Assembly: GCA_902582695.1 (NCBI GenBank)
Contig: CACHTH010000001.1
Coordinates: 7,279-71,278 of the forward strand
Length of the DNA: 64,000 nucleotides
DNA from: an uncultured Candidatus Actinomarina sp.
GTDB taxonomy: Bacteria; Actinomycetota; Acidimicrobiia; Actinomarinales; Actinomarinaceae
Direction: 5' to 3'
Shown: in pieces, positions 15,889 to 25,102 of the stretch
Position numbering within the stretch: the stretch's first letter is position 1
Layout: the number at the start of each line of letters is the position of its first letter
Notes under the pieces: model-generated
Told to the model about the DNA's origin: nothing
Seen by the model: only the letters and a program-made list of their open reading frames with translations
Database searches by the model: none
Made by a program: the position numbers and the translations under genes

Positions 15889-16464
15889 ATGGAAATCCTT
15901 TTAGCTTCAAATAATAAAAATAAGCACAAAGAGTTATTAAAAATTTTTCAAGAATTTGGAAGTAAACACACTTTGATAGTTAATGAAGATATTCCAGATG
16001 TGATTGAAGATAAAAAAACAATTGAAGAAAATGCAAAAAAAAAGGCTGAAGAATGTTATGAGGTTTTTAAATCTCCAATTATTTCAGATGATTCAGGTTT
16101 GTTTGTAGATGCATTAGATGGTCAGCCTGGTGTTCATTCAAAGAGATATGCAGGCTTAGGTTCTACAGATGTTGAAAATAATCAAAAATTAATAAATGAA
16201 CTTAAGACAGCTAATAATCTGAGTGCGTTTTTTAAAACAGTTCTTTGTTATTTTGATGGTTTAAATTTTATAACGTCAGAAGGAGTTCTTAAGGGAAATA
16301 TTGTATTTGAACCAAGAGGAAAAAATGGTTTTGGCTATGATTCTATTTTTGAGGTTAGCGGTAAAACATTGGCTGAAATGACTCTAGATGAAAAATCAAA
16401 TATAAGCCATAGAAAATTAGCAGCGGTAAAGTTAGTTGAGATGTTAAATGAACACAAAGTTTAA
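15889..16464 (+). CDS. rdgB: non-canonical purine NTP pyrophosphatase (RdgB/HAM1 family)
   Basis: The MEILLASNNKNKHKE start is typical of RdgB, and the motifs DSGLFVDALDGQPGVHSKRY and GFGYDSIF are present. I prefer ATG 15889 to the track's TTG 15868, which overlaps rph. Confidence 0.88.
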   Translation: MEILLASNNKNKHKELLKIFQEFGSKHTLIVNEDIPDVIEDKKTIEENAKKKAEECYEVFKSPIISDDSGLFVDALDGQPGVHSKRYAGLGSTDVENNQKLINELKTANNLSAFFKTVLCYFDGLNFITSEGVLKGNIVFEPRGKNGFGYDSIFEVSGKTLAEMTLDEKSNISHRKLAAVKLVEMLNEHKV

Positions 16465-17134
16465 GTTTTATCTGCTTATTATATTTCTTCTTTTTTCTGC
16501 TTGTGAAGTTAAGTGGAGTATGGAAGTTAAATTCAATGAAGATTATTCAGGTAGTTATAAAATATTAATTTTACTCGATCAGGATGCACAGTTTTATGCA
16601 TTAGAAACTGGTCAAACAACAGCCATTGGTGGATTAGACGCTATACTTGCAGATCTTCCAGAAGGGTATGGATCGTCAATTTATCAAGAGGGAAACTATT
16701 TAGGTATTTTAGTTAGAAATGATTTTCAAAATACTGAAGAGTTGCAAGCTCAATTTAAATTACTAAATGAAAACGAAAATACAGCATTATTACTGCTCCC
16801 TATTGAAGAAATAAACTTTAGTGAGTCAAGTAGGTCATTTAATATAAATGGAATTTTTGGAGAAATCTTTGTTTCAGATGAGGAAAGTATAGAGGGATAT
16901 GACAATGTTTTTGACGGCAAGTTGTCTGTGATTGTTCCTGGAAATATCACTAGTCCTAAGCTTGAGAATATTGTCAATAACACAGTGATTTTTGATATTG
17001 AAGGAACTTCTGTAAAAACTTTTGAAGTGGTTGCAAATAAGTACTCATTTTTAAGCCCAACAAATATCATAATTTTATTCTTTGTACTTTCATTGATATA
17101 TATTTTTGTTAGACAATATAGAAAAAAGAACTAA
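16448..17134 (+). CDS. LppM/DUF3153-like lipoprotein with a C-terminal TM anchor
   Basis: 228 aa with a signal peptide and lipobox (LLFSAC) and a C-terminal TM helix (IIILFFVLSLIYIFV) followed by RQYRKKN. The overall layout and several segments resemble mycobacterial LppM, from recall. Confidence 0.55.
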   Translation: MNTKFKFYLLIIFLLFSACEVKWSMEVKFNEDYSGSYKILILLDQDAQFYALETGQTTAIGGLDAILADLPEGYGSSIYQEGNYLGILVRNDFQNTEELQAQFKLLNENENTALLLLPIEEINFSESSRSFNINGIFGEIFVSDEESIEGYDNVFDGKLSVIVPGNITSPKLENIVNNTVIFDIEGTSVKTFEVVANKYSFLSPTNIIILFFVLSLIYIFVRQYRKKN

Positions 17135-17144
17135 AATTGACTCA

Positions 17145-17171
17145 ATGAAAAAAATTATAATTATTATTTAG
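17145..17171 (+). promoter_or_regulatory. candidate leader peptide ORF MKKIIIII with five consecutive Ile codons (attenuator leader)
   Basis: The sequence is ATG AAA AAA ATT ATA ATT ATT ATT TAG. It starts 10 nt after the upstream stop codon. Its stop codon abuts alternative hairpins and a terminator located just before cimA. Confidence 0.55.
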
Positions 17172-17194
17172 GAGCAACGTAAAAAACGTTGTTG

Positions 17195-17220
17195 CCCTTG
17201 CTTTGCAAGGGTTTTTTTTT
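17195..17220 (+). terminator. intrinsic terminator (7-bp stem, 3-nt loop, T9 tract) in the cimA leader
   Basis: CCCTTGC (17195-17201) pairs with GCAAGGG (17205-17211) across a TTT loop. Nine T residues follow (17212-17220). The cimA ATG is at 17226. Confidence 0.8.
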
Positions 17221-17225
17221 GGAAT

Positions 17226-18782
17226 ATGAAAATAGATATATTTGATACAACACTCAGAGATGGCTTTCAACAAGAAGGTATATCGCCTTCTGTAAAAGAT
17301 AAGATTGCAATTGCTAAGTTAATTGACGAATTAGGGGTTAGTTACATTGAAGGAGGATGGCCTGGAGCTTCTCCAAAAGAAGAAGAGTTTTTTGAAACTG
17401 CAAAAAAAGAGTTAAATCTAAAGAATGCAAAACTTGTTAGCTTTGGATCCACTAGAAAGTTAAATTTATCTGCTACAGATGATCCTCAAGTAAAGGCATT
17501 AGTTGATTCAGGAACTGATTATATCTGTATTGTAGGTAAATCTTCAAAACTACATATTAAAAAGGCTTTGCAAACTGATGTTGATAGTGCAATTGATATG
17601 GCAGTTGATACAATTTTATATTTAAAATCAAAAGGCAAAAAAGTATTTTTTGATGCAGAACACTTCTTTGATGGCTACAAAGAGGACTCTCAAACAAGTT
17701 TAAAAATTCTTGAATCAGTAGTTACAGCTGGTGCAGATTGTTTTATATTTTGCGACACAAATGGTGGTACATTACCTGAGGAAGTAAGAAAAATTCTTAC
17801 TGAGGTTATAGAAAAATATCCAAAAACAAAATTTGGTGTTCATTTTCAAAATGACAATGGCTGTGCAGTTGTTAACTCAATGGTTGCAGTAGATCTTGGT
17901 GTTGATCATGTTCAGGGAACAATAAATGGGTACGGTGAAAGGACTGGAAATGCTGACTTGTGTACACTCATTCCAAATCTATCTTTAAAGCAAAATTACG
18001 ACACAATACCTACAGATTCTCTTAGAAAACTAACCCAGACTGCCAACCATATTGCAGAACTCGTAAATGTGTCTATAGATTCAAGGCATCCATATGTTGG
18101 GTCATCTGCTTTTACCCATAAGGCAGGACTTCATGCATCTGGTATGTCAAAAGATAGCTCACTATATGAACACATAGATGCTTCAAAAGTTGGAAATTTT
18201 ACAAGAACTACAGTTTCAGAATTAGCTGGTAGAGCAAGTGTTATTAAAAAAGCAGAGGAGTTTGGGTTAAGTATTAATAATGATGAAGCTAAAGATTTAA
18301 TTCAACAAGTTCAAAACTTAGAGCACATTGGTTTTCAATTTGAAGCGGCGGATGCTTCGTTATTTATATTAATGAATTCAATAAAGGGAATTAAGCCAGA
18401 TTTTTTTGAATTTGAAAGTTTCAGAGTTTTTTCAGAAAGAAGAAATTCAGAAAATGTTGTTTCAGAAGCTGTTTGTAAAATCATCGTAAATAATAATAGA
18501 TATGTAAAGACAGGTGAAGGAGTTGGTCCGGTAGATGCTCTCTCAAAAGCATTAAAATCAGCACTTGAAAATGACTATAAAAATATTAACAATGTGAAAC
18601 TTATTGATTATAAGGTCAGAATAATTGACTCCTCTGATGGCACAGAAGCTAAAACAAGAGTACTAATTGAATTTACTGATTCAAAAAAACAATGGAGCAC
18701 TATAGGTGTGCATGAAAATATTATTAATGCATCTTGGAATGCGCTTTGCGATGGATTTAATTATTATTTTATGACTTCTTAA
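17226..18782 (+). CDS. cimA: (R)-citramalate synthase (CimA, LeuA/HCS family, TIGR00977-like)
   Basis: 518 aa, collinear with the Geobacter-type CimA as I recall it (FDTTLRDGFQQEG, YIEGGWPGASPKEEEFF, FDAEHFFDGYK, CDTNGGTLP, VQGTINGYGERTGNADLC, C-terminal LeuA-dimer-like regulatory domain). Confidence 0.85.
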   Translation: MKIDIFDTTLRDGFQQEGISPSVKDKIAIAKLIDELGVSYIEGGWPGASPKEEEFFETAKKELNLKNAKLVSFGSTRKLNLSATDDPQVKALVDSGTDYICIVGKSSKLHIKKALQTDVDSAIDMAVDTILYLKSKGKKVFFDAEHFFDGYKEDSQTSLKILESVVTAGADCFIFCDTNGGTLPEEVRKILTEVIEKYPKTKFGVHFQNDNGCAVVNSMVAVDLGVDHVQGTINGYGERTGNADLCTLIPNLSLKQNYDTIPTDSLRKLTQTANHIAELVNVSIDSRHPYVGSSAFTHKAGLHASGMSKDSSLYEHIDASKVGNFTRTTVSELAGRASVIKKAEEFGLSINNDEAKDLIQQVQNLEHIGFQFEAADASLFILMNSIKGIKPDFFEFESFRVFSERRNSENVVSEAVCKIIVNNNRYVKTGEGVGPVDALSKALKSALENDYKNINNVKLIDYKVRIIDSSDGTEAKTRVLIEFTDSKKQWSTIGVHENIINASWNALCDGFNYYFMTS

Positions 18783-18832: not shown

Positions 18833-20779
18833 ATGAATGAAAAAATTGAAAACCTACTTAAAGAAGATAGAAAATTTCCGCCTTCTGAACATCTAGTCAA
18901 AAACGCAAATGCACCATCTTCTTGGTATGACGAAGCAAGCAAAGATAGATTAAAATTTTGGCAAAAACAGGCTTTAACAAGAATCTCTTGGTTCAAAGAG
19001 CCAACAGATATTCTAGATGATTCAAACCCTCCTTTTTTCAAATGGTTTAAAGATGGTGAGTTGAACTTATCTTATAATTGCTTAGATAGACATCTTGAAT
19101 CTGATGGGGATAGAGTTGCGTTTTATTGGGAAGGTGAACCCGGAGATACGCAAGAAATTACATATCAGGATCTTTATGAGCGAGTTTGCAAACTTTCAAA
19201 TGCATTAAAAAAACTTGGTGTAGAAAAAGGTGATAGAGTAGCAATTTATTTGGGCATGACTCCAGAAATAGTAGTTTCTATGTTGGCTTGTGCAAGGATT
19301 GGTGCAGTGCACTCAGTTGTCTTTGGTGGATTTTCATCTGAAGCTCTTGCAGATAGAATCAATGACGCAAAAGCAAAAACAGTTATTACTGCTGATGGTG
19401 CATGGAGAAGGGGAGATATTGTTCCTTTAAAAAATAATGTTGACGGCTCATTGGAACTTACTGAATATGTAGAAAATGTAATTGTTGTTAAACGAACTGA
19501 GCAGGAAATTAATATGACTGATGGTCGAGATCATTGGTACCATGATATAACTGACAAAGAGTCTTCTGATTGCGAACCTGAAGTAATGAACTCTGAGGAT
19601 ATGCTGTACATTCTTTATACATCTGGAACAACTGCTAAACCAAAAGGTATTGTCCACACACAAGGTGGGTATCTAACAGGAGTGACAACAACTCATCACG
19701 AAGTTTTTGATGTAAAAGAAGATGATATTTACTGGTGTGCAGCAGATTGTGGTTGGGTTACTGGTCATAGTTATATTGTTTATGGGCCACTAGCTAATAA
19801 AGCTACAAGCGTTATGTATGAGGGAGCACCAAATGCACCAGATGAGAAAAGACTTTGGAGTATAATTGAAAAGTACAAAGTCAACATTTTTTATACTGCT
19901 CCAACTGCAATAAGAGCATTTATGAAATGGGGTGTAGAGCACCCTCAAGCTCATGATTTAAGTTCACTAAGAATATTAGGTACTGTTGGGGAGCCAATAA
20001 ATCCGGAAGCATGGATGTGGTATCACAAAAATATTGGTGGCGAGAATTGTGCGATTGTAGATACATGGTGGCAAACAGAAACTGGTTCAATAATGATATC
20101 CCCACTTCCAGGTGTGACAAGTACTAAACCCGGATCAGCTTGCGGACCACTACCAGGTATCGAATCAGTTGTAATTGACAATGATGGAAATGAAGTAGGA
20201 AAAGGGGAAGGCGGCTTTTTAGCTGTAAAATCTCCTTGGCCATCAATGCTTAGAACTGTCTATGGAGATGATCAAAGATATTTGGATACTTATTGGTCAC
20301 AACATGATGGTTTATATTTTGCTGGTGATGGAGCTAAGTATGATGAAGAAGGTTATATATGGCTCTTAGGTCGTGTTGATGATGTAATGAACATATCTGG
20401 ACATAGAATATCAACTGCTGAGGTTGAAAGTGCTTTAGTTTCCCATCAAGCAGTGGCCGAAGCTGCAGTAATTGGTAGAAGCGACGAAATTACTGGAGAA
20501 GCGATTGCTGCATTTGTTTCATTAATTGGAACTGATGAAGGCAACGAAGAACTCATTGCTGATCTGAGACAGCATGTAAGTGATAAAATTGGACCAATTG
20601 CAAAACCAAAAAGCATTGTTATTACCGCTGATTTACCAAAAACTAGAAGTGGAAAAATTATGAGAAGGCTTTTAAAAGATATTTCTGAAGAAAGAAAGCT
20701 TGGAGACGTTACTACATTAGCTAATGCAGATATCGTATCTGAATTACAAACTAGAGCATCAGAATCTGACGATGAATGA
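18833..20779 (+). CDS. acs: acetyl-CoA synthetase (AMP-forming)
   Basis: 648 aa with the AMP-binding signature YTSGTTAKPKG, WWQTETG, and C-terminal LPKTRSGKIMRR. An SD sequence (aggggag) lies upstream. Confidence 0.95.
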   Translation: MNEKIENLLKEDRKFPPSEHLVKNANAPSSWYDEASKDRLKFWQKQALTRISWFKEPTDILDDSNPPFFKWFKDGELNLSYNCLDRHLESDGDRVAFYWEGEPGDTQEITYQDLYERVCKLSNALKKLGVEKGDRVAIYLGMTPEIVVSMLACARIGAVHSVVFGGFSSEALADRINDAKAKTVITADGAWRRGDIVPLKNNVDGSLELTEYVENVIVVKRTEQEINMTDGRDHWYHDITDKESSDCEPEVMNSEDMLYILYTSGTTAKPKGIVHTQGGYLTGVTTTHHEVFDVKEDDIYWCAADCGWVTGHSYIVYGPLANKATSVMYEGAPNAPDEKRLWSIIEKYKVNIFYTAPTAIRAFMKWGVEHPQAHDLSSLRILGTVGEPINPEAWMWYHKNIGGENCAIVDTWWQTETGSIMISPLPGVTSTKPGSACGPLPGIESVVIDNDGNEVGKGEGGFLAVKSPWPSMLRTVYGDDQRYLDTYWSQHDGLYFAGDGAKYDEEGYIWLLGRVDDVMNISGHRISTAEVESALVSHQAVAEAAVIGRSDEITGEAIAAFVSLIGTDEGNEELIADLRQHVSDKIGPIAKPKSIVITADLPKTRSGKIMRRLLKDISEERKLGDVTTLANADIVSELQTRASESDDE

Positions 20780-21266
20780 GAGAATAGTTAAATGGGACTT
20801 AATTCCAGGCTTAGTCATGGAATTGGTAAATTTGGATAAAGAAGGTAGAAGAGAATTTTTTATAAATTTACCAATTGAAAACGTTCCGATGGGCGCACTA
20901 ATGGATACTTCAAGCATTCATGTTGATGAAAAGGGGCAAGTATCTTTTACACTTACGCCACAAGAATTTCATTACAACCCTCTTGGAACAGTTCATGGAG
21001 GTATGGCGGCTACAATGCTAGATTCTTGTAATAGTATTTCAGCTAACTGTCAATTGGATAAAGGGTTTCTAACTATGACAACAGATATAAGGATTAATTA
21101 TTTAAGACCTATGACTGTATCTACTGGTGAAGTTACTGCTTCTGCAGAAATTGAAAAAATTGGAAGAAGAGTTATTTTTGTAACAGGAACTTTGAAAGAT
21201 AAAAATGGAAAAGTTTATGCAACTGCAAATTCAACAGAACTCATAGTTGAATTTCCACCAAAATAG
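20772..21266 (+). CDS. PaaI-family hotdog-fold thioesterase
   Basis: The motif GTVHGGMAATMLDS is present. I prefer the ATG at 20772 (MNERIVKW...), which overlaps the acs stop codon (ATGAATGA), over the track's 20724 start inside acs. Confidence 0.75.
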   Translation: MNERIVKWDLIPGLVMELVNLDKEGRREFFINLPIENVPMGALMDTSSIHVDEKGQVSFTLTPQEFHYNPLGTVHGGMAATMLDSCNSISANCQLDKGFLTMTTDIRINYLRPMTVSTGEVTASAEIEKIGRRVIFVTGTLKDKNGKVYATANSTELIVEFPPK

Positions 21267-21280
21267 ATAACTATAATTTG

Positions 21281-21363
21281 TGCGGATGAGAGGACTCGAA
21301 CCTCCACGAGCAAAGCTCACTAGATCCTAAATCTAGCGCGTCTACCAGTTCCGCCACATCCGC
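21281..21363 (-). tRNA. tRNA-Leu (anticodon TAG), class II with a long variable arm
   Basis: The reverse complement folds as gcggatg/catccgc acceptor, anticodon stem ctaga/tctag, loop ttTAGga, variable arm gagctttgctcgt, and T loop ttcgagt. Confidence 0.9.
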
Positions 21364-21375
21364 TAAAATGTCGCG

Positions 21376-21449
21376 TGGGTCGCCGGGGACTTGAACCCCG
21401 AACCTGCGGATTAAGAGTCCGTTGCTCTGCCAAATTGAGCTAGCGACCC
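21376..21449 (-). tRNA. tRNA-Lys (anticodon CTT)
   Basis: The reverse complement folds as gggtcgc/gcgaccc acceptor, loop ctCTTaa, and T arm cgggg-ttcaagt-ccccg. There is one A:C mismatch at the top of the anticodon stem. Confidence 0.85.
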
Positions 21450-21544
21450 CTTTTAAAGATTAACTTAGATTATGATAGTTAAGTATAAATTTTTTCTATT
21501 TATTCTTTTTATAAAACAGTTAAGATAGAAAAATGATTAAGTTG

Positions 21545-21619
21545 CGGGCTGTGGCTCAGCTTGGCTAGAGCGCCTGCTTTGGGAGCAGGAGGTCGTGAGT
21601 TCGAATCTCACCAGCCCGA
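21545..21619 (+). tRNA. tRNA-Pro (anticodon TGG)
   Basis: Acceptor cgggctg/cagcccg, anticodon stem cctgc/gcagg, loop ttTGGga, T arm gtgag-ttcgaat-ctcac. Confidence 0.9.
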
Positions 21620-21626
21620 CAAACCT

Positions 21627-21697
21627 GCGGGTGTAGCTTAATGGCAAAGCTCCAGCCTTCCAAGCTGGCTATGAGGGTTCGATTCCCTTCACCCGCT
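21627..21697 (+). tRNA. tRNA-Gly (anticodon TCC)
   Basis: Acceptor gcgggtg/cacccgc, anticodon stem ccagc/gctgg, loop ctTCCaa, short 4-nt variable loop, 71 nt in total. Confidence 0.9.
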
Positions 21698-21705
21698 CAC
21701 GAAGA

Positions 21706-21779
21706 GCTCTCGTAGCTCAAATGGATAGAGCAACAGACTTCTAATCTGTAGGTTATAGGTTCGAGTCCTATCGAGAGCG
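21706..21779 (+). tRNA. tRNA-Arg (anticodon TCT)
   Basis: Acceptor gctctcg/cgagagc, anticodon stem acaga/tctgt, loop ctTCTaa, T arm atagg-ttcgagt-cctat. Confidence 0.9.
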
Positions 21780-21783
21780 CTGT

Positions 21784-21859
21784 GGTGATCGTAGCTCAGT
21801 TCGGTTAGAGCGCCTGGTTGTGGTCCAGGAGGTCGCGGGTTCGAATCCCGTCGGTCACC
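21784..21859 (+). tRNA. tRNA-His (anticodon GTG) with encoded G-1
   Basis: An extra 5' G (21784) lies opposite the discriminator C. Acceptor gtgatcg/cggtcac, anticodon stem cctgg/ccagg, loop ttGTGgt. Confidence 0.9.
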
Positions 21860-23845: not shown

Positions 23846-25102
23846 ATGGCAAATAAAGATTCATCTCAAGCACTAAAGTGCAGTTTTTGTGGCAAGTCTC
23901 AAAAACAAGTAATAAAACTAATCGCAGGCCCAGGTGTTTACATTTGTGATGAGTGTATTGAACTTTGTGTTGAAATAATCGAAGAAGAAAAAGTCGAAAA
24001 GCTAGAAACAAGCTCAGAAGATTATCTACCTTTACCAAAAGAGATTAATCAATCATTAAACGAGTACATCATTGGCCAAGAAGATGCAAAGAAGACCTTG
24101 TCTGTTGCAGTTTATAATCACTACAAAAGAATTTATAAAGGTGATCTAGTAGATAATGAACTTGAAATTCAAAAATCAAACGTTTTACTTTTAGGACCAA
24201 CTGGAAGTGGTAAAACACTGTTAGCACAAACTTTAGCAAAAACACTAAATGTTCCTTTTGCAATAGCAGATGCAACTACTCTTACTGAAGCTGGTTATGT
24301 AGGTGAAGATGTTGAAAATATTTTGCTTACATTAATCCAATCAGCTGATTATGAAATTCCAAGAGCTGAAAAGGGAATTATCTACATTGATGAAATAGAT
24401 AAAATTACAAGAAAATCTGATAACCCATCAATTACAAGAGATGTTTCTGGAGAAGGTGTTCAACAGGCGTTACTTAAGATACTTGAAGGTACTACTGCTC
24501 AAGTGCCACCACAAGGTGGTAGAAAACATCCACAACAAGAGTATTTGCAAATAGATACTACAAATATTTTATTTATCGTTGGAGGAGCTTTTGACGGACT
24601 TGATCAAATTATTAGTAAGAGGCTTGGAGAAAATACAATTGGCTTTAACACTAACATGTCAGATGCTAAAGAATTTTATAAAGAAGAACTTTTTGCATTT
24701 GTTGAACCAAGAGATTTAATTAAGTTTGGCTTGATTCCTGAATTTATTGGAAGACTACCAGTTACTACAAATGTAAATGAATTAAGCAAGGATGCTTTGA
24801 TAGAAATTCTAACTAAGCCAAAAAACGCTATTACAAAACAATTTAAGAAAATGTTTGAATTAGACGATATCGATCTTGTTTTCACTGATGCATCACTTGA
24901 GGCTATGGCTGATTTAGCGCTCGAAAGGAAAACTGGCGCAAGAGGTCTACGCTCAATATTAGAGAAAATATTGTTAGATGAAATGTATGAATCACCATCA
25001 AGAAAAGATATTTCTAAAATAATTATTGATAAAGAAAATGTTTTAGAAGATATTGCACCAAAAATGGTTTTGAAAGAGTCAAAAGACGACAAAACTGCAT
25101 AA
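23846..25102 (+). CDS. clpX: ATP-dependent Clp protease ATP-binding subunit ClpX
   Basis: 418 aa with an N-terminal zinc ribbon (CSFCGKSQ...CDECI), Walker [17 protein letters not shown] and GARGLR. Confidence 0.95.

Follow-up and report, generated by a model that had tools for sequence, protein, structure and literature searches.

The enterobacterial attenuators of the trp, his, thr, ilvGMEDA, and leu operons comprise at least four RNA segments, an antiterminator formed by segments 2 and 3 that overlaps the terminator, and a leader peptide translated from a Shine-Dalgarno sequence. In the present study, we analyzed the region upstream of cimA, the gene for (R)-citramalate synthase, in a 64,000-nucleotide stretch of DNA from an uncultured Candidatus Actinomarina species (contig CACHTH010000001.1, hereafter referred to as the window). 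Judging from sequence comparisons, cimA is very probably controlled there by an isoleucine (Ile)-responsive transcription attenuator that operates through a leader peptide. The proposed logic of the cimA leader, in which starvation leads to read-through, is that of the enterobacterial attenuators, whereas its probably leaderless mRNA, its two independent hairpins, and its regulatory codons placed directly against the stop codon are not.

Among the actinobacterial systems, the upstream open reading frame (ORF) attenuator of Mycobacterium tuberculosis ilvB1NC resembles the cimA leader, in that its regulatory codons (LVVI) lie near the stop codon and a Rho-independent terminator is located in the leader (PMC13236596). 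For ilvB1, it was demonstrated that the 5′ arm of a structure that prevents termination is covered when the ribosome is at the stop codon and left free when the ribosome stalls (PMC13236596), and we counted this demonstration in favor of the same masking logic for cimA. However, the ilvB1NC anti-terminator overlaps the terminator sequence (PMC13236596), unlike in the cimA family, and the cimA leader also differs in its gene, its Ile-only codons, its taxon, and its much shorter overall length (~75–110 nucleotides (nt)). In Corynebacterium glutamicum ilvBNC, the leader peptide starts 1 nt from the transcription start, and a switch at the boundary between hairpins resembles a GG:CC pairing of the window that is described below; its leader forms three hairpins (anti-antiterminator, antiterminator, and terminator), whereas the cimA family has two and the boundary pairing is not conserved (PMC11857589). 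A near-leaderless arrangement, as is likely for the cimA leader, is seen for the Corynebacterium ilvB, leuA, and trp leaders and for mycobacterial short ORFs (PMC11857589; bioRxiv 10.1101/834739). The mycobacterial polycysteine leaderless ORFs share with the cimA leader an actinobacterial host, a run of end-product codons at the 3′ end, and, as proposed for cimA, the sensing of charged tRNA, but they act on translation, with the codon tract pairing to the downstream Shine-Dalgarno region and without a terminator (bioRxiv 10.1101/834739; Mol Microbiol 2020). In contrast, the Ile tract of the cimA leader exhibited no complementarity to the cimA start region, and its canonical terminator is conserved.

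A different principle has been described for “tug-of-war” riboswitches, which include synthetic constructs and natural ZTP riboswitches. In these RNAs, a stable structure lies 0–4 nt before the terminator and shares no sequence with it, and the intactness of this structure sets the outcome (bioRxiv 10.64898/2026.06.17.733018). Approximately 10% of natural ZTP riboswitches have this layout, with spacers shorter than 5 nt, and a longer spacer restores termination; the authors explained this by a steric competition for the exit channel through which RNA leaves the polymerase (bioRxiv 10.64898/2026.06.17.733018). No leader-peptide example is described in that preprint.

In the window, the leader ORF MKKIIIII (17145–17171 on the forward strand, including its stop codon; ATG AAA AAA ATT ATA ATT ATT ATT TAG) contains a run of five Ile codons (17154–17168; ATT ATA ATT ATT ATT), which is the proposed sensor. 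The leader is followed by hairpin 1 (17173–17193, forward strand), in which 17173–17180 are paired with 17186–17193 around an AAAAA loop. An intrinsic terminator (17194–17220, forward strand) begins 0–1 nt past hairpin 1, with 17194–17201 paired with 17205–17212 around a TTT loop and a tract of nine T residues at 17212–17220. The proposed regulated gene, cimA (17226–18782, forward strand), is assigned by the equivalog family TIGR00977 (622.9 bits, against a cut-off of 450). The mini-ORF, the hairpin behind it, the terminator with its T9 tract, and a citramalate synthase gene starting with the ATG at 17226 had all been reported in a preliminary description of this DNA; each was confirmed at the same coordinates, except that the stem of hairpin 1, with 8 base pairs (bp), is one pair longer than listed there.

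The leader stands out from its surroundings. Among the 770 short ORFs of the window (ATG start, 5–15 amino acids), it is the sole ORF bearing IIII, and runs of at least five Ile codons in any frame occur only at the leader. These results indicate that the leader is not a by-product of the AT-richness of the window (27–36% G+C). The terminator stands out as well. Both strands of the 64 kb were scanned for perfect stems of 5 bp or more that contain four or more G-C pairs and are followed by at least six T residues within 8 nt. Two sites were found, and of these only the cimA site, which was the best match of both terminator scans, has an unbroken run of T residues; in the second (1921–1906, minus strand), the T tract is interrupted. 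The earlier statement that this is the only convincing terminator in the 64 kb thus holds. Canonical intrinsic terminators are nearly absent from the window, and most of its transcription units must end otherwise; a genome almost without such terminators has retained one exactly where the regulation would require one.

The folding energy of the 94-nt stretch containing the unit was −21.9 kcal/mol, compared to −13.6 ± 2.9 kcal/mol for 200 dinucleotide shuffles, all of which it exceeded in stability (z = −2.9). Individually, hairpin 1 contributes −8.4 kcal/mol and the terminator stem −12.2 kcal/mol, and the two coexist at −20.6 kcal/mol. Hairpin 1 can be extended by G17171-C17196 and G17172-C17195, to −10.6 kcal/mol, and this GG:CC extension invades two pairs of the terminator.

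To place the window in context, 159 CimA loci were compared. At least 72 of them carry the leader unit directly before cimA, giving 66 distinct sequences, 54 of which are from high-GC genomes (59–73% G+C). Among the species-representative genomes, a Candidatus Actinomarina single-cell genome encodes a CimA that is 96% identical to that of the window. In the Actinomarina relatives, from genomes and metagenomes with CimA identities down to 77%, the Ile-run leader, the hairpin, and the terminator were kept in all cases, with MKKIIIII, MKIIGIIIM, MINFIIII, MNIIIII, and MQKIIIIV as the leaders of this type. The high-GC leaders of the class Acidimicrobiia include MFIPDNTIIIE, MTARYDIIIIA, MNGPATSIIIII, and MTEPRTPIIIP. 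The form M..III(I)x-stop is conserved in the 66 distinct sequences, with a length of 8–13 codons, and the Ile run of the relatives consists of 3–5 codons and lies 0–1 codon before the stop. In 50 of the 54 high-GC sequences, a single codon, which is variable, separates the run from the stop, and family-wide the positions −12 to −4 relative to the stop are almost invariantly ATC ATY ATY. The mini-ORF and Ile run, first noted in the window alone, were therefore found to be conserved in relatives, including the high-GC ones.

The high-GC loci are particularly informative with regard to chance. Runs of at least three Ile codons occurred 51 times in the leader versus once elsewhere in 615 kb, which excludes chance as the origin of the Ile runs. 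In addition, ATT, the rarer codon, accounts for 29% of the leader Ile codons, compared to 8% of the Ile codons within the coding part of cimA at these loci. The leader stop is TAG in 42 of the 54 high-GC sequences, and the next base is G in 44 of the 54; TGA is expected to dominate as the stop codon in genomes of such high G+C content. Hairpin 1 begins its pairing with the G after the leader stop (17169–17172 in the window, and the equivalent positions). If termination is slow in this stop context, the ribosome could also hold the hairpin open for longer.

The unit, in which a putative promoter is followed by a probably near-leaderless mini-ORF with the ending III(I)-x-stop, then by a hairpin at or in the stop codon, and 0–7 nt further on by a terminator, is found with various genes upstream. 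The upstream gene is a divergent class-I tRNA synthetase gene in L004, L021, and L037, another minus-strand gene in L053, and rdgB in L038, where the LppM-like gene that precedes the unit in the window is absent; the leader unit is kept in each case. For the high-GC loci, the upstream genes were identified by Pfam, as stop-to-stop ORFs are mostly shadow frames there. Because the unit persists whichever gene lies upstream, it is tied to cimA and not to the upstream gene. A covariance model built from the 54 high-GC sequences alone gave, as its best match in the 64 kb, the element of the window (17157–17221, 23.6 bits, E = 0.0011). The second match of the model (24124–24160, minus strand, 13.5 bits, E = 0.26) is probably noise.

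In loci that were first scored as leaderless, the covariance model detected related elements ~1–2 kb upstream of cimA. These sibling elements precede leuB-ilvE-cimA or leuB-cimA operons in further Acidimicrobiia, among them Microthrix- and Iamia-like metagenome-assembled genomes, as exemplified by L016:992–1067, L058:894–966, and L108:315–386, together with 23 further loci. Their leaders (for example, MGQHHRVIIIS, MRALSAPVIVIA, and MSAFAAEVIIL) are followed by the same hairpin-spacer-terminator layout as in the cimA unit, and their endings mix valine (Val) and Ile in the form VIIIx or VIVIx (VIIIS, VIVIA, and VIIL). The regulatory codons are thus Ile only before cimA alone, and Val plus Ile before leuB and ilvE, which encode shared branched-chain enzymes. 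This match between codons and gene function is as a real attenuator predicts. Some cimA-adjacent variants have interrupted runs (IGIT, IEIT, and LILT). Overall, the conservation of the leader, the Ile runs at high G+C content, and the independence from the upstream gene support the earlier proposal of an Ile-sensing leader attenuator of cimA.

Both helices are maintained by compensatory changes. In the 12 distinct Actinomarina-type sequences, 92.6% of the cells of hairpin 1 and 97.9% of those of the terminator were paired (95% overall), and two pairs of hairpin 1 were changed on both sides. The terminator was found in 71 of the 72 leader-bearing loci. With the 54 high-GC sequences as input, RNAalifold again found the two helices, and 11 of its 14 pairs showed compensatory changes. 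We also compared, family-wide, the complementarity of native segments with that of segments permuted across species, using the 5′ leader, the Ile tract, the flank, the hairpin 1 arms and loop, the spacer, the terminator arms, and the downstream tail. The hairpin 1 arms gave −19.1 kcal/mol for the native versus −11.1 kcal/mol for the permuted pairs (z = −18), and the terminator arms −17.4 versus −12.7 kcal/mol (z = −17.8). All other tested segment pairs remained at background, so that no third co-evolving helix was found among them, and pairing of the 3′ arm of hairpin 1 with the spacer plus the terminator 5′ arm was even slightly avoided (z = +2.6).

Several additional candidate interactions were considered and rejected. 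To cover translational control, pseudoknots, and a clamp between the A tract and the U tract, the Ile tract, the hairpin 1 loop, and the 5′ leader were each compared with the cimA start, the U tract, and the terminator arms; no combination rose above background in the permutation test. The pairing between the A run and the U tract in the minimum-energy fold of the window is absent in the relatives. Rho loading by the C-rich high-GC leaders was rejected, as the Actinomarina leader contains no C. In an Rfam search of the window and 14 relatives, only tRNAs reached the gathering score, and no leader, T-box, or riboswitch family did so; the best sub-threshold matches, PrrF (27.2 versus 90 bits) and Phe_leader (17.6 versus 55 bits), were both driven by the terminator.

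The preliminary description had further proposed a specific antiterminator, formed by pairing 17171–17178 with 17191–17197, that would be mutually exclusive with the terminator. This pairing exists in the window, with an energy of −7.2 kcal/mol, but it is weaker than the competing extended hairpin 1 (−10.6 kcal/mol), and it is poorly kept: in the 12 Actinomarina-type sequences, the pairs C17175-G17194 and G17174-C17195 can form in only 2 and 5 sequences, respectively, and no covariation was observed. No third helix co-evolves either, and this part of the proposal is not supported. By helix conservation, folding energies, and the co-evolution test, no mutually exclusive antiterminator that shares bases with the terminator was found. 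As judged from these comparisons, the defining features of an attenuator, a leader with regulatory codons and a terminator, are present in the cimA unit, and an overlapping antiterminator is absent.

The geometry of the unit is precise. Relative to the end of the stop codon, 64 of the 66 sequences have the start of hairpin 1 at −3 to +1 nt, and the commonest first pair uses the G of TAG. With all stem pairs counted, the spacer between hairpin 1 and the terminator is 0–7 nt, being at most 4 nt in 59 of the 66 sequences and 0–2 nt in all 12 Actinomarina-type sequences; it is never below 0 nt, and hence none of the 66 sequences exhibits an overlap between the two hairpins. The last Ile codon most often starts 7–8 nt before the first paired base. 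In most cases, hairpin 1 is the more stable of the two helices. The energies of hairpin 1 range from −5.4 to −25.9 kcal/mol across the 66 sequences, with medians, for hairpin 1 and the terminator, respectively, of −19.4 and −13.9 kcal/mol (terminator core) in the high-GC sequences and −8.0 and −9.5 kcal/mol in the Actinomarina sequences.

The effect of the ribosome on hairpin 1 was estimated by folding with the mRNA unwound to ~7 nt past the first base of the A-site codon, which is the boundary of the ribosomal helicase. When the A site was placed on an Ile codon, hairpin 1 retained nearly all of its energy. Placing the A site on the stop codon instead left hairpin 1 with ~−2 kcal/mol in the window and, in the high-GC members, with a small remnant. 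An occlusion of 26 nt, as used for M. tuberculosis ilvB1 (PMC13236596), gave a qualitatively equal picture. Hairpin 1 is thus spared by a ribosome that is decoding Ile and largely melted by one at the stop codon, and its state reports ribosome stalling. These results fit the positional logic of the preliminary description, according to which a stalled ribosome frees the 5′ arm and a ribosome at the TAG masks it.

Because standard folding lets both hairpins coexist, the terminator must be coupled to hairpin 1 by something other than competition for base pairs. The cimA leader family matches the tug-of-war riboswitches in its spacer, in the absence of overlap, and in the relative stabilities of its two structures, and on account of this layout we propose a tug-of-war that is gated by the ribosome. 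When charged tRNA-Ile is scarce, the ribosome would stall on the Ile run with its leading edge just short of hairpin 1, and the intact hairpin 1 would sterically suppress the adjacent terminator, so that the polymerase terminates less often and reads on into cimA; a small classical contribution to this suppression may come, in the window, from the GG:CC extension. When Ile is plentiful, the ribosome would reach the stop codon, and the 5′ arm of hairpin 1 would be held in the ribosomal mRNA channel. Left without its partner, the 3′ arm would become a slack single-stranded linker, the terminator would fold, and transcription would end before cimA. Speculatively, hairpin 1 may also pause the polymerase and thereby synchronize it with the ribosome. 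In the tug-of-war riboswitches, the ligand stabilizes an aptamer; in contrast, the ribosome would destabilize a plain hairpin in the cimA leader, and the input would be translation. We give this full statement, a two-hairpin, sterically working, ribosome-mediated Ile attenuator of cimA, an even chance of being correct. It is possible, and we suggest it tentatively from the shared layout, that the cimA leader and its Val/Ile sibling are the first natural ribosome-gated tug-of-war attenuators, which would have no antiterminator helix and would read through when the leader is untranslated.

Several points weigh against a steric mechanism of this kind. With hairpin 1 and the terminator coexisting in nearest-neighbor folding (−20.6 kcal/mol), the coupling rests wholly on the steric effect. 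In the tug-of-war preprint, a plain upstream hairpin was clearly effective only on the weakest terminator, and larger effects needed aptamers or pseudoknots; moreover, that work, which is not peer reviewed, used the polymerases of E. coli and B. subtilis, not an actinobacterial one (bioRxiv 10.64898/2026.06.17.733018). For the steric model to work, the ribosome must not yet have left the stop codon as the polymerase reaches the T tract, as hairpin 1 would otherwise re-form, and the model predicts read-through with an untranslated leader, which is opposite to the classical attenuators. Spacers of 5–7 nt occur in 7 of the 66 sequences. Finally, the relation of spacer length to the stability of the hairpin or the terminator was uninformative, its sign varying with the spacer measure and with the mixing of GC classes.

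Alternatively, the unit could be a classical attenuator with a short overlapping antiterminator. The terminator would then be blocked solely by new pairing of the 5′ arm beside the stop codon with the foremost bases of the terminator 5′ arm, or by its extension into them. The overlap could be provided by the register shift proposed earlier, by the GG:CC extension, or by a “boundary trinucleotide” as in C. glutamicum ilvBNC, whose three-nucleotide boundary switch has mutational support (PMC11857589). The extension (G17171-C17196 and G17172-C17195) gains 2.2 kcal/mol in the window, L038 is able to form AAGG:CCUU, and the AGG at the stop codon could pair with the CCU that is conserved in the terminator arm. 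However, the helix of the register shift is paired in only 73% of the cells, with its central pairs present in 2 and 5 of the 12 sequences; the extension is absent in relatives with TAAGAAC, TAGTAGC, or TAATGAC; and in most high-GC sequences, the terminator 5′ arm has no partner until its own 3′ arm has been transcribed. No third helix co-evolves, and an overlap of 2–3 pairs would be easily displaced by a terminator of −12 kcal/mol. We therefore regard such an overlap, in any of the three forms, as unlikely. The same low probability is given to a variant in which the stalled ribosome itself, and not hairpin 1, is the block, closure of the terminator forcing a clash between ribosome and polymerase. 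With hairpin 1 folded, only about 25–35 nt-equivalents would tether a ribosome stalled on the Ile run to the polymerase active site; an untranslated leader would terminate, like that of a classical attenuator. The Ile run lies as near to hairpin 1 as is possible without melting it (7–8 nt from the last Ile codon), both hairpin 1 and the short spacer shorten the tether, and a clash would explain why a plain hairpin, which is weak alone in tug-of-war assays, could suffice. The minimal spacing between ribosome and polymerase in expressome structures is roughly 34 nt, and the path available in the cimA leader, about 26–38 nt-equivalents depending on the stalled Ile codon, is borderline. To our knowledge, there is no precedent for a ribosome clash of this type.

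Rather than acting by its bulk, hairpin 1 might be a pause signal, or a site for a protein or RNA factor that links Ile stalling to termination. In many lineages, the sequence of the hairpin 1 arms varies unusually little (GCGCAYRC and GYGUGCGC), with G-U wobbles preserving the 3′ arm, which could mean that the sequence is recognized besides the shape. Several lineages nevertheless have unrelated hairpin 1 sequences, such as GGGCGUCCACC, GGCAUAGGG, and GGGGCCCGCGCC, in addition to the AT-rich Actinomarina version; as these occupy the same position, shape and position are kept and not sequence. No candidate factor gene was linked to the unit, and this explanation appears quite improbable. A non-regulatory origin, in which the terminator simply ends the upstream operon (aconitase, pdxH, rph, rdgB, and the LppM-like gene) and the mini-ORF arose by chance in AT-rich DNA, has in its favor that the terminator of the window lies 60 nt behind a co-directional gene and that ATT and ATA are common codons at 31% G+C. 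Conversely, the unit is kept at 59–73% G+C, where Ile runs are otherwise absent, and where the upstream gene is divergent; the window has almost no other intrinsic terminators behind genes; and the leader codons become Val plus Ile when the downstream operon contains leuB and ilvE. The non-regulatory reading is already contradicted by these sequence comparisons, and we consider it extremely improbable.

In full-text literature searches, no description of a cimA leader peptide or attenuator was found. A 2005 survey of RNA regulation in actinobacteria lists trp, ilvB, leuS, cys, and leuA elements, with cimA not among them, and the Actinomarinales genome paper mentions neither isoleucine nor citramalate. 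What appears to be new is the target genes (cimA and leuB-ilvE-cimA), the taxon range (the class Acidimicrobiia, including the marine Actinomarina), and the architecture without an antiterminator. An overlapping antiterminator, which textbooks treat as essential, is absent, yet the architecture is conserved throughout the class with a precise geometry. Candidatus Actinomarina is among the most streamlined and abundant marine actinobacteria, and neither it nor the Acidimicrobiia are genetically tractable yet. The leader would give a regulatory confirmation, independent of the enzyme sequence, that this LeuA-family enzyme serves isoleucine synthesis in Actinomarina and the Acidimicrobiia. If the steric mechanism is true, a principle just described for riboswitches would extend to translation-coupled control and would provide a minimal, modular attenuator of ~75 nt for engineering, as well as a search pattern for similar elements, consisting of a codon run by the stop, a hairpin, and a terminator within 5 nt.

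A putative promoter for the unit is located at 17110–17137 on the forward strand, with a −35 element TAGACA (17110–17115), a 16-nt spacer, and a −10 element TAAAAT (17132–17137), and a consensus scan gave 10 of 12 matches for this pair. In the Actinomarina relatives, TAGACA-N16-TAnnAT is kept and ends 6–7 nt 5′ of the leader ATG. It is kept in L038, L085, and L088 though the upstream gene differs, and the motif is intergenic there. In the high-GC relatives, the corresponding motif is TTGAC-N17/18-CATACT, which mostly ends 8–9 nt 5′ of the leader ATG, and a promoter-like pair was present 5′ of the leader at every locus compared. In the window, the putative −35 element lies inside the FVRQ codons with which the gene of the upstream membrane protein ends, and the −10 element overlaps the stop codon of that gene (17106–17137), so that the same bases serve coding and promoter roles in this compact genome. 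We infer that transcription starts ~7 nt past the −10 element, at or beside A17145. No Shine-Dalgarno sequence was found 5′ of the leader ATG in the window or in the family loci. As the promoter pair ends so close to the ATG and a Shine-Dalgarno sequence is absent, the leader mRNA is likely to be leaderless or nearly so.

Two further observations concern the leader ORF. Threonine (Thr) accounts for 29% (93 of 321) of the residues preceding the Ile run in the 51 distinct high-GC leaders (L004–L146), as in MTSPTTTIIIT and MTGSGTTTTTIIIT, with one such leader at L018:2889–2930; this enrichment is absent from the Actinomarina leaders. Thr could be a second sensed amino acid, being an alternative precursor of 2-oxobutyrate (compare E. 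coli thrL), or it could merely keep the RNA C/A-rich and unstructured. In addition, the leader ORF of the window is in frame with cimA, with the TAG as the sole barrier (17145–17228), and in the +1 frame, no stop codon follows the Ile run until a TGA overlapping the cimA ATG. These frame relations are not kept in the relatives and are probably a coincidence. Stop-codon read-through and a hungry-codon frameshift into the terminator were rejected, because the frame relation in the relatives takes all three values and early stops are present.

The gene upstream of the unit in the window (16448–17134, forward strand) lies outside the regulatory unit and encodes a membrane-anchored protein of 228 amino acids; its stop codon (TAA, 17132–17134) is followed 10 nt later by the start of the mini-ORF. 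The label “LppM-like” given to this protein in the preliminary description corresponds to an existing match to Pfam LppM (PF21946, E = 0.05), but the match is weak and sub-threshold, at 14.3 bits against a cut-off of 27. Downstream of cimA, the acetyl-CoA synthetase gene acs (18833–20779), whose product supplies the co-substrate of CimA, is overlapped at its end by a gene for a hotdog-fold thioesterase (20724–21266). Beyond the thioesterase gene, seven tRNA genes on both strands are clustered at 21281–21859.

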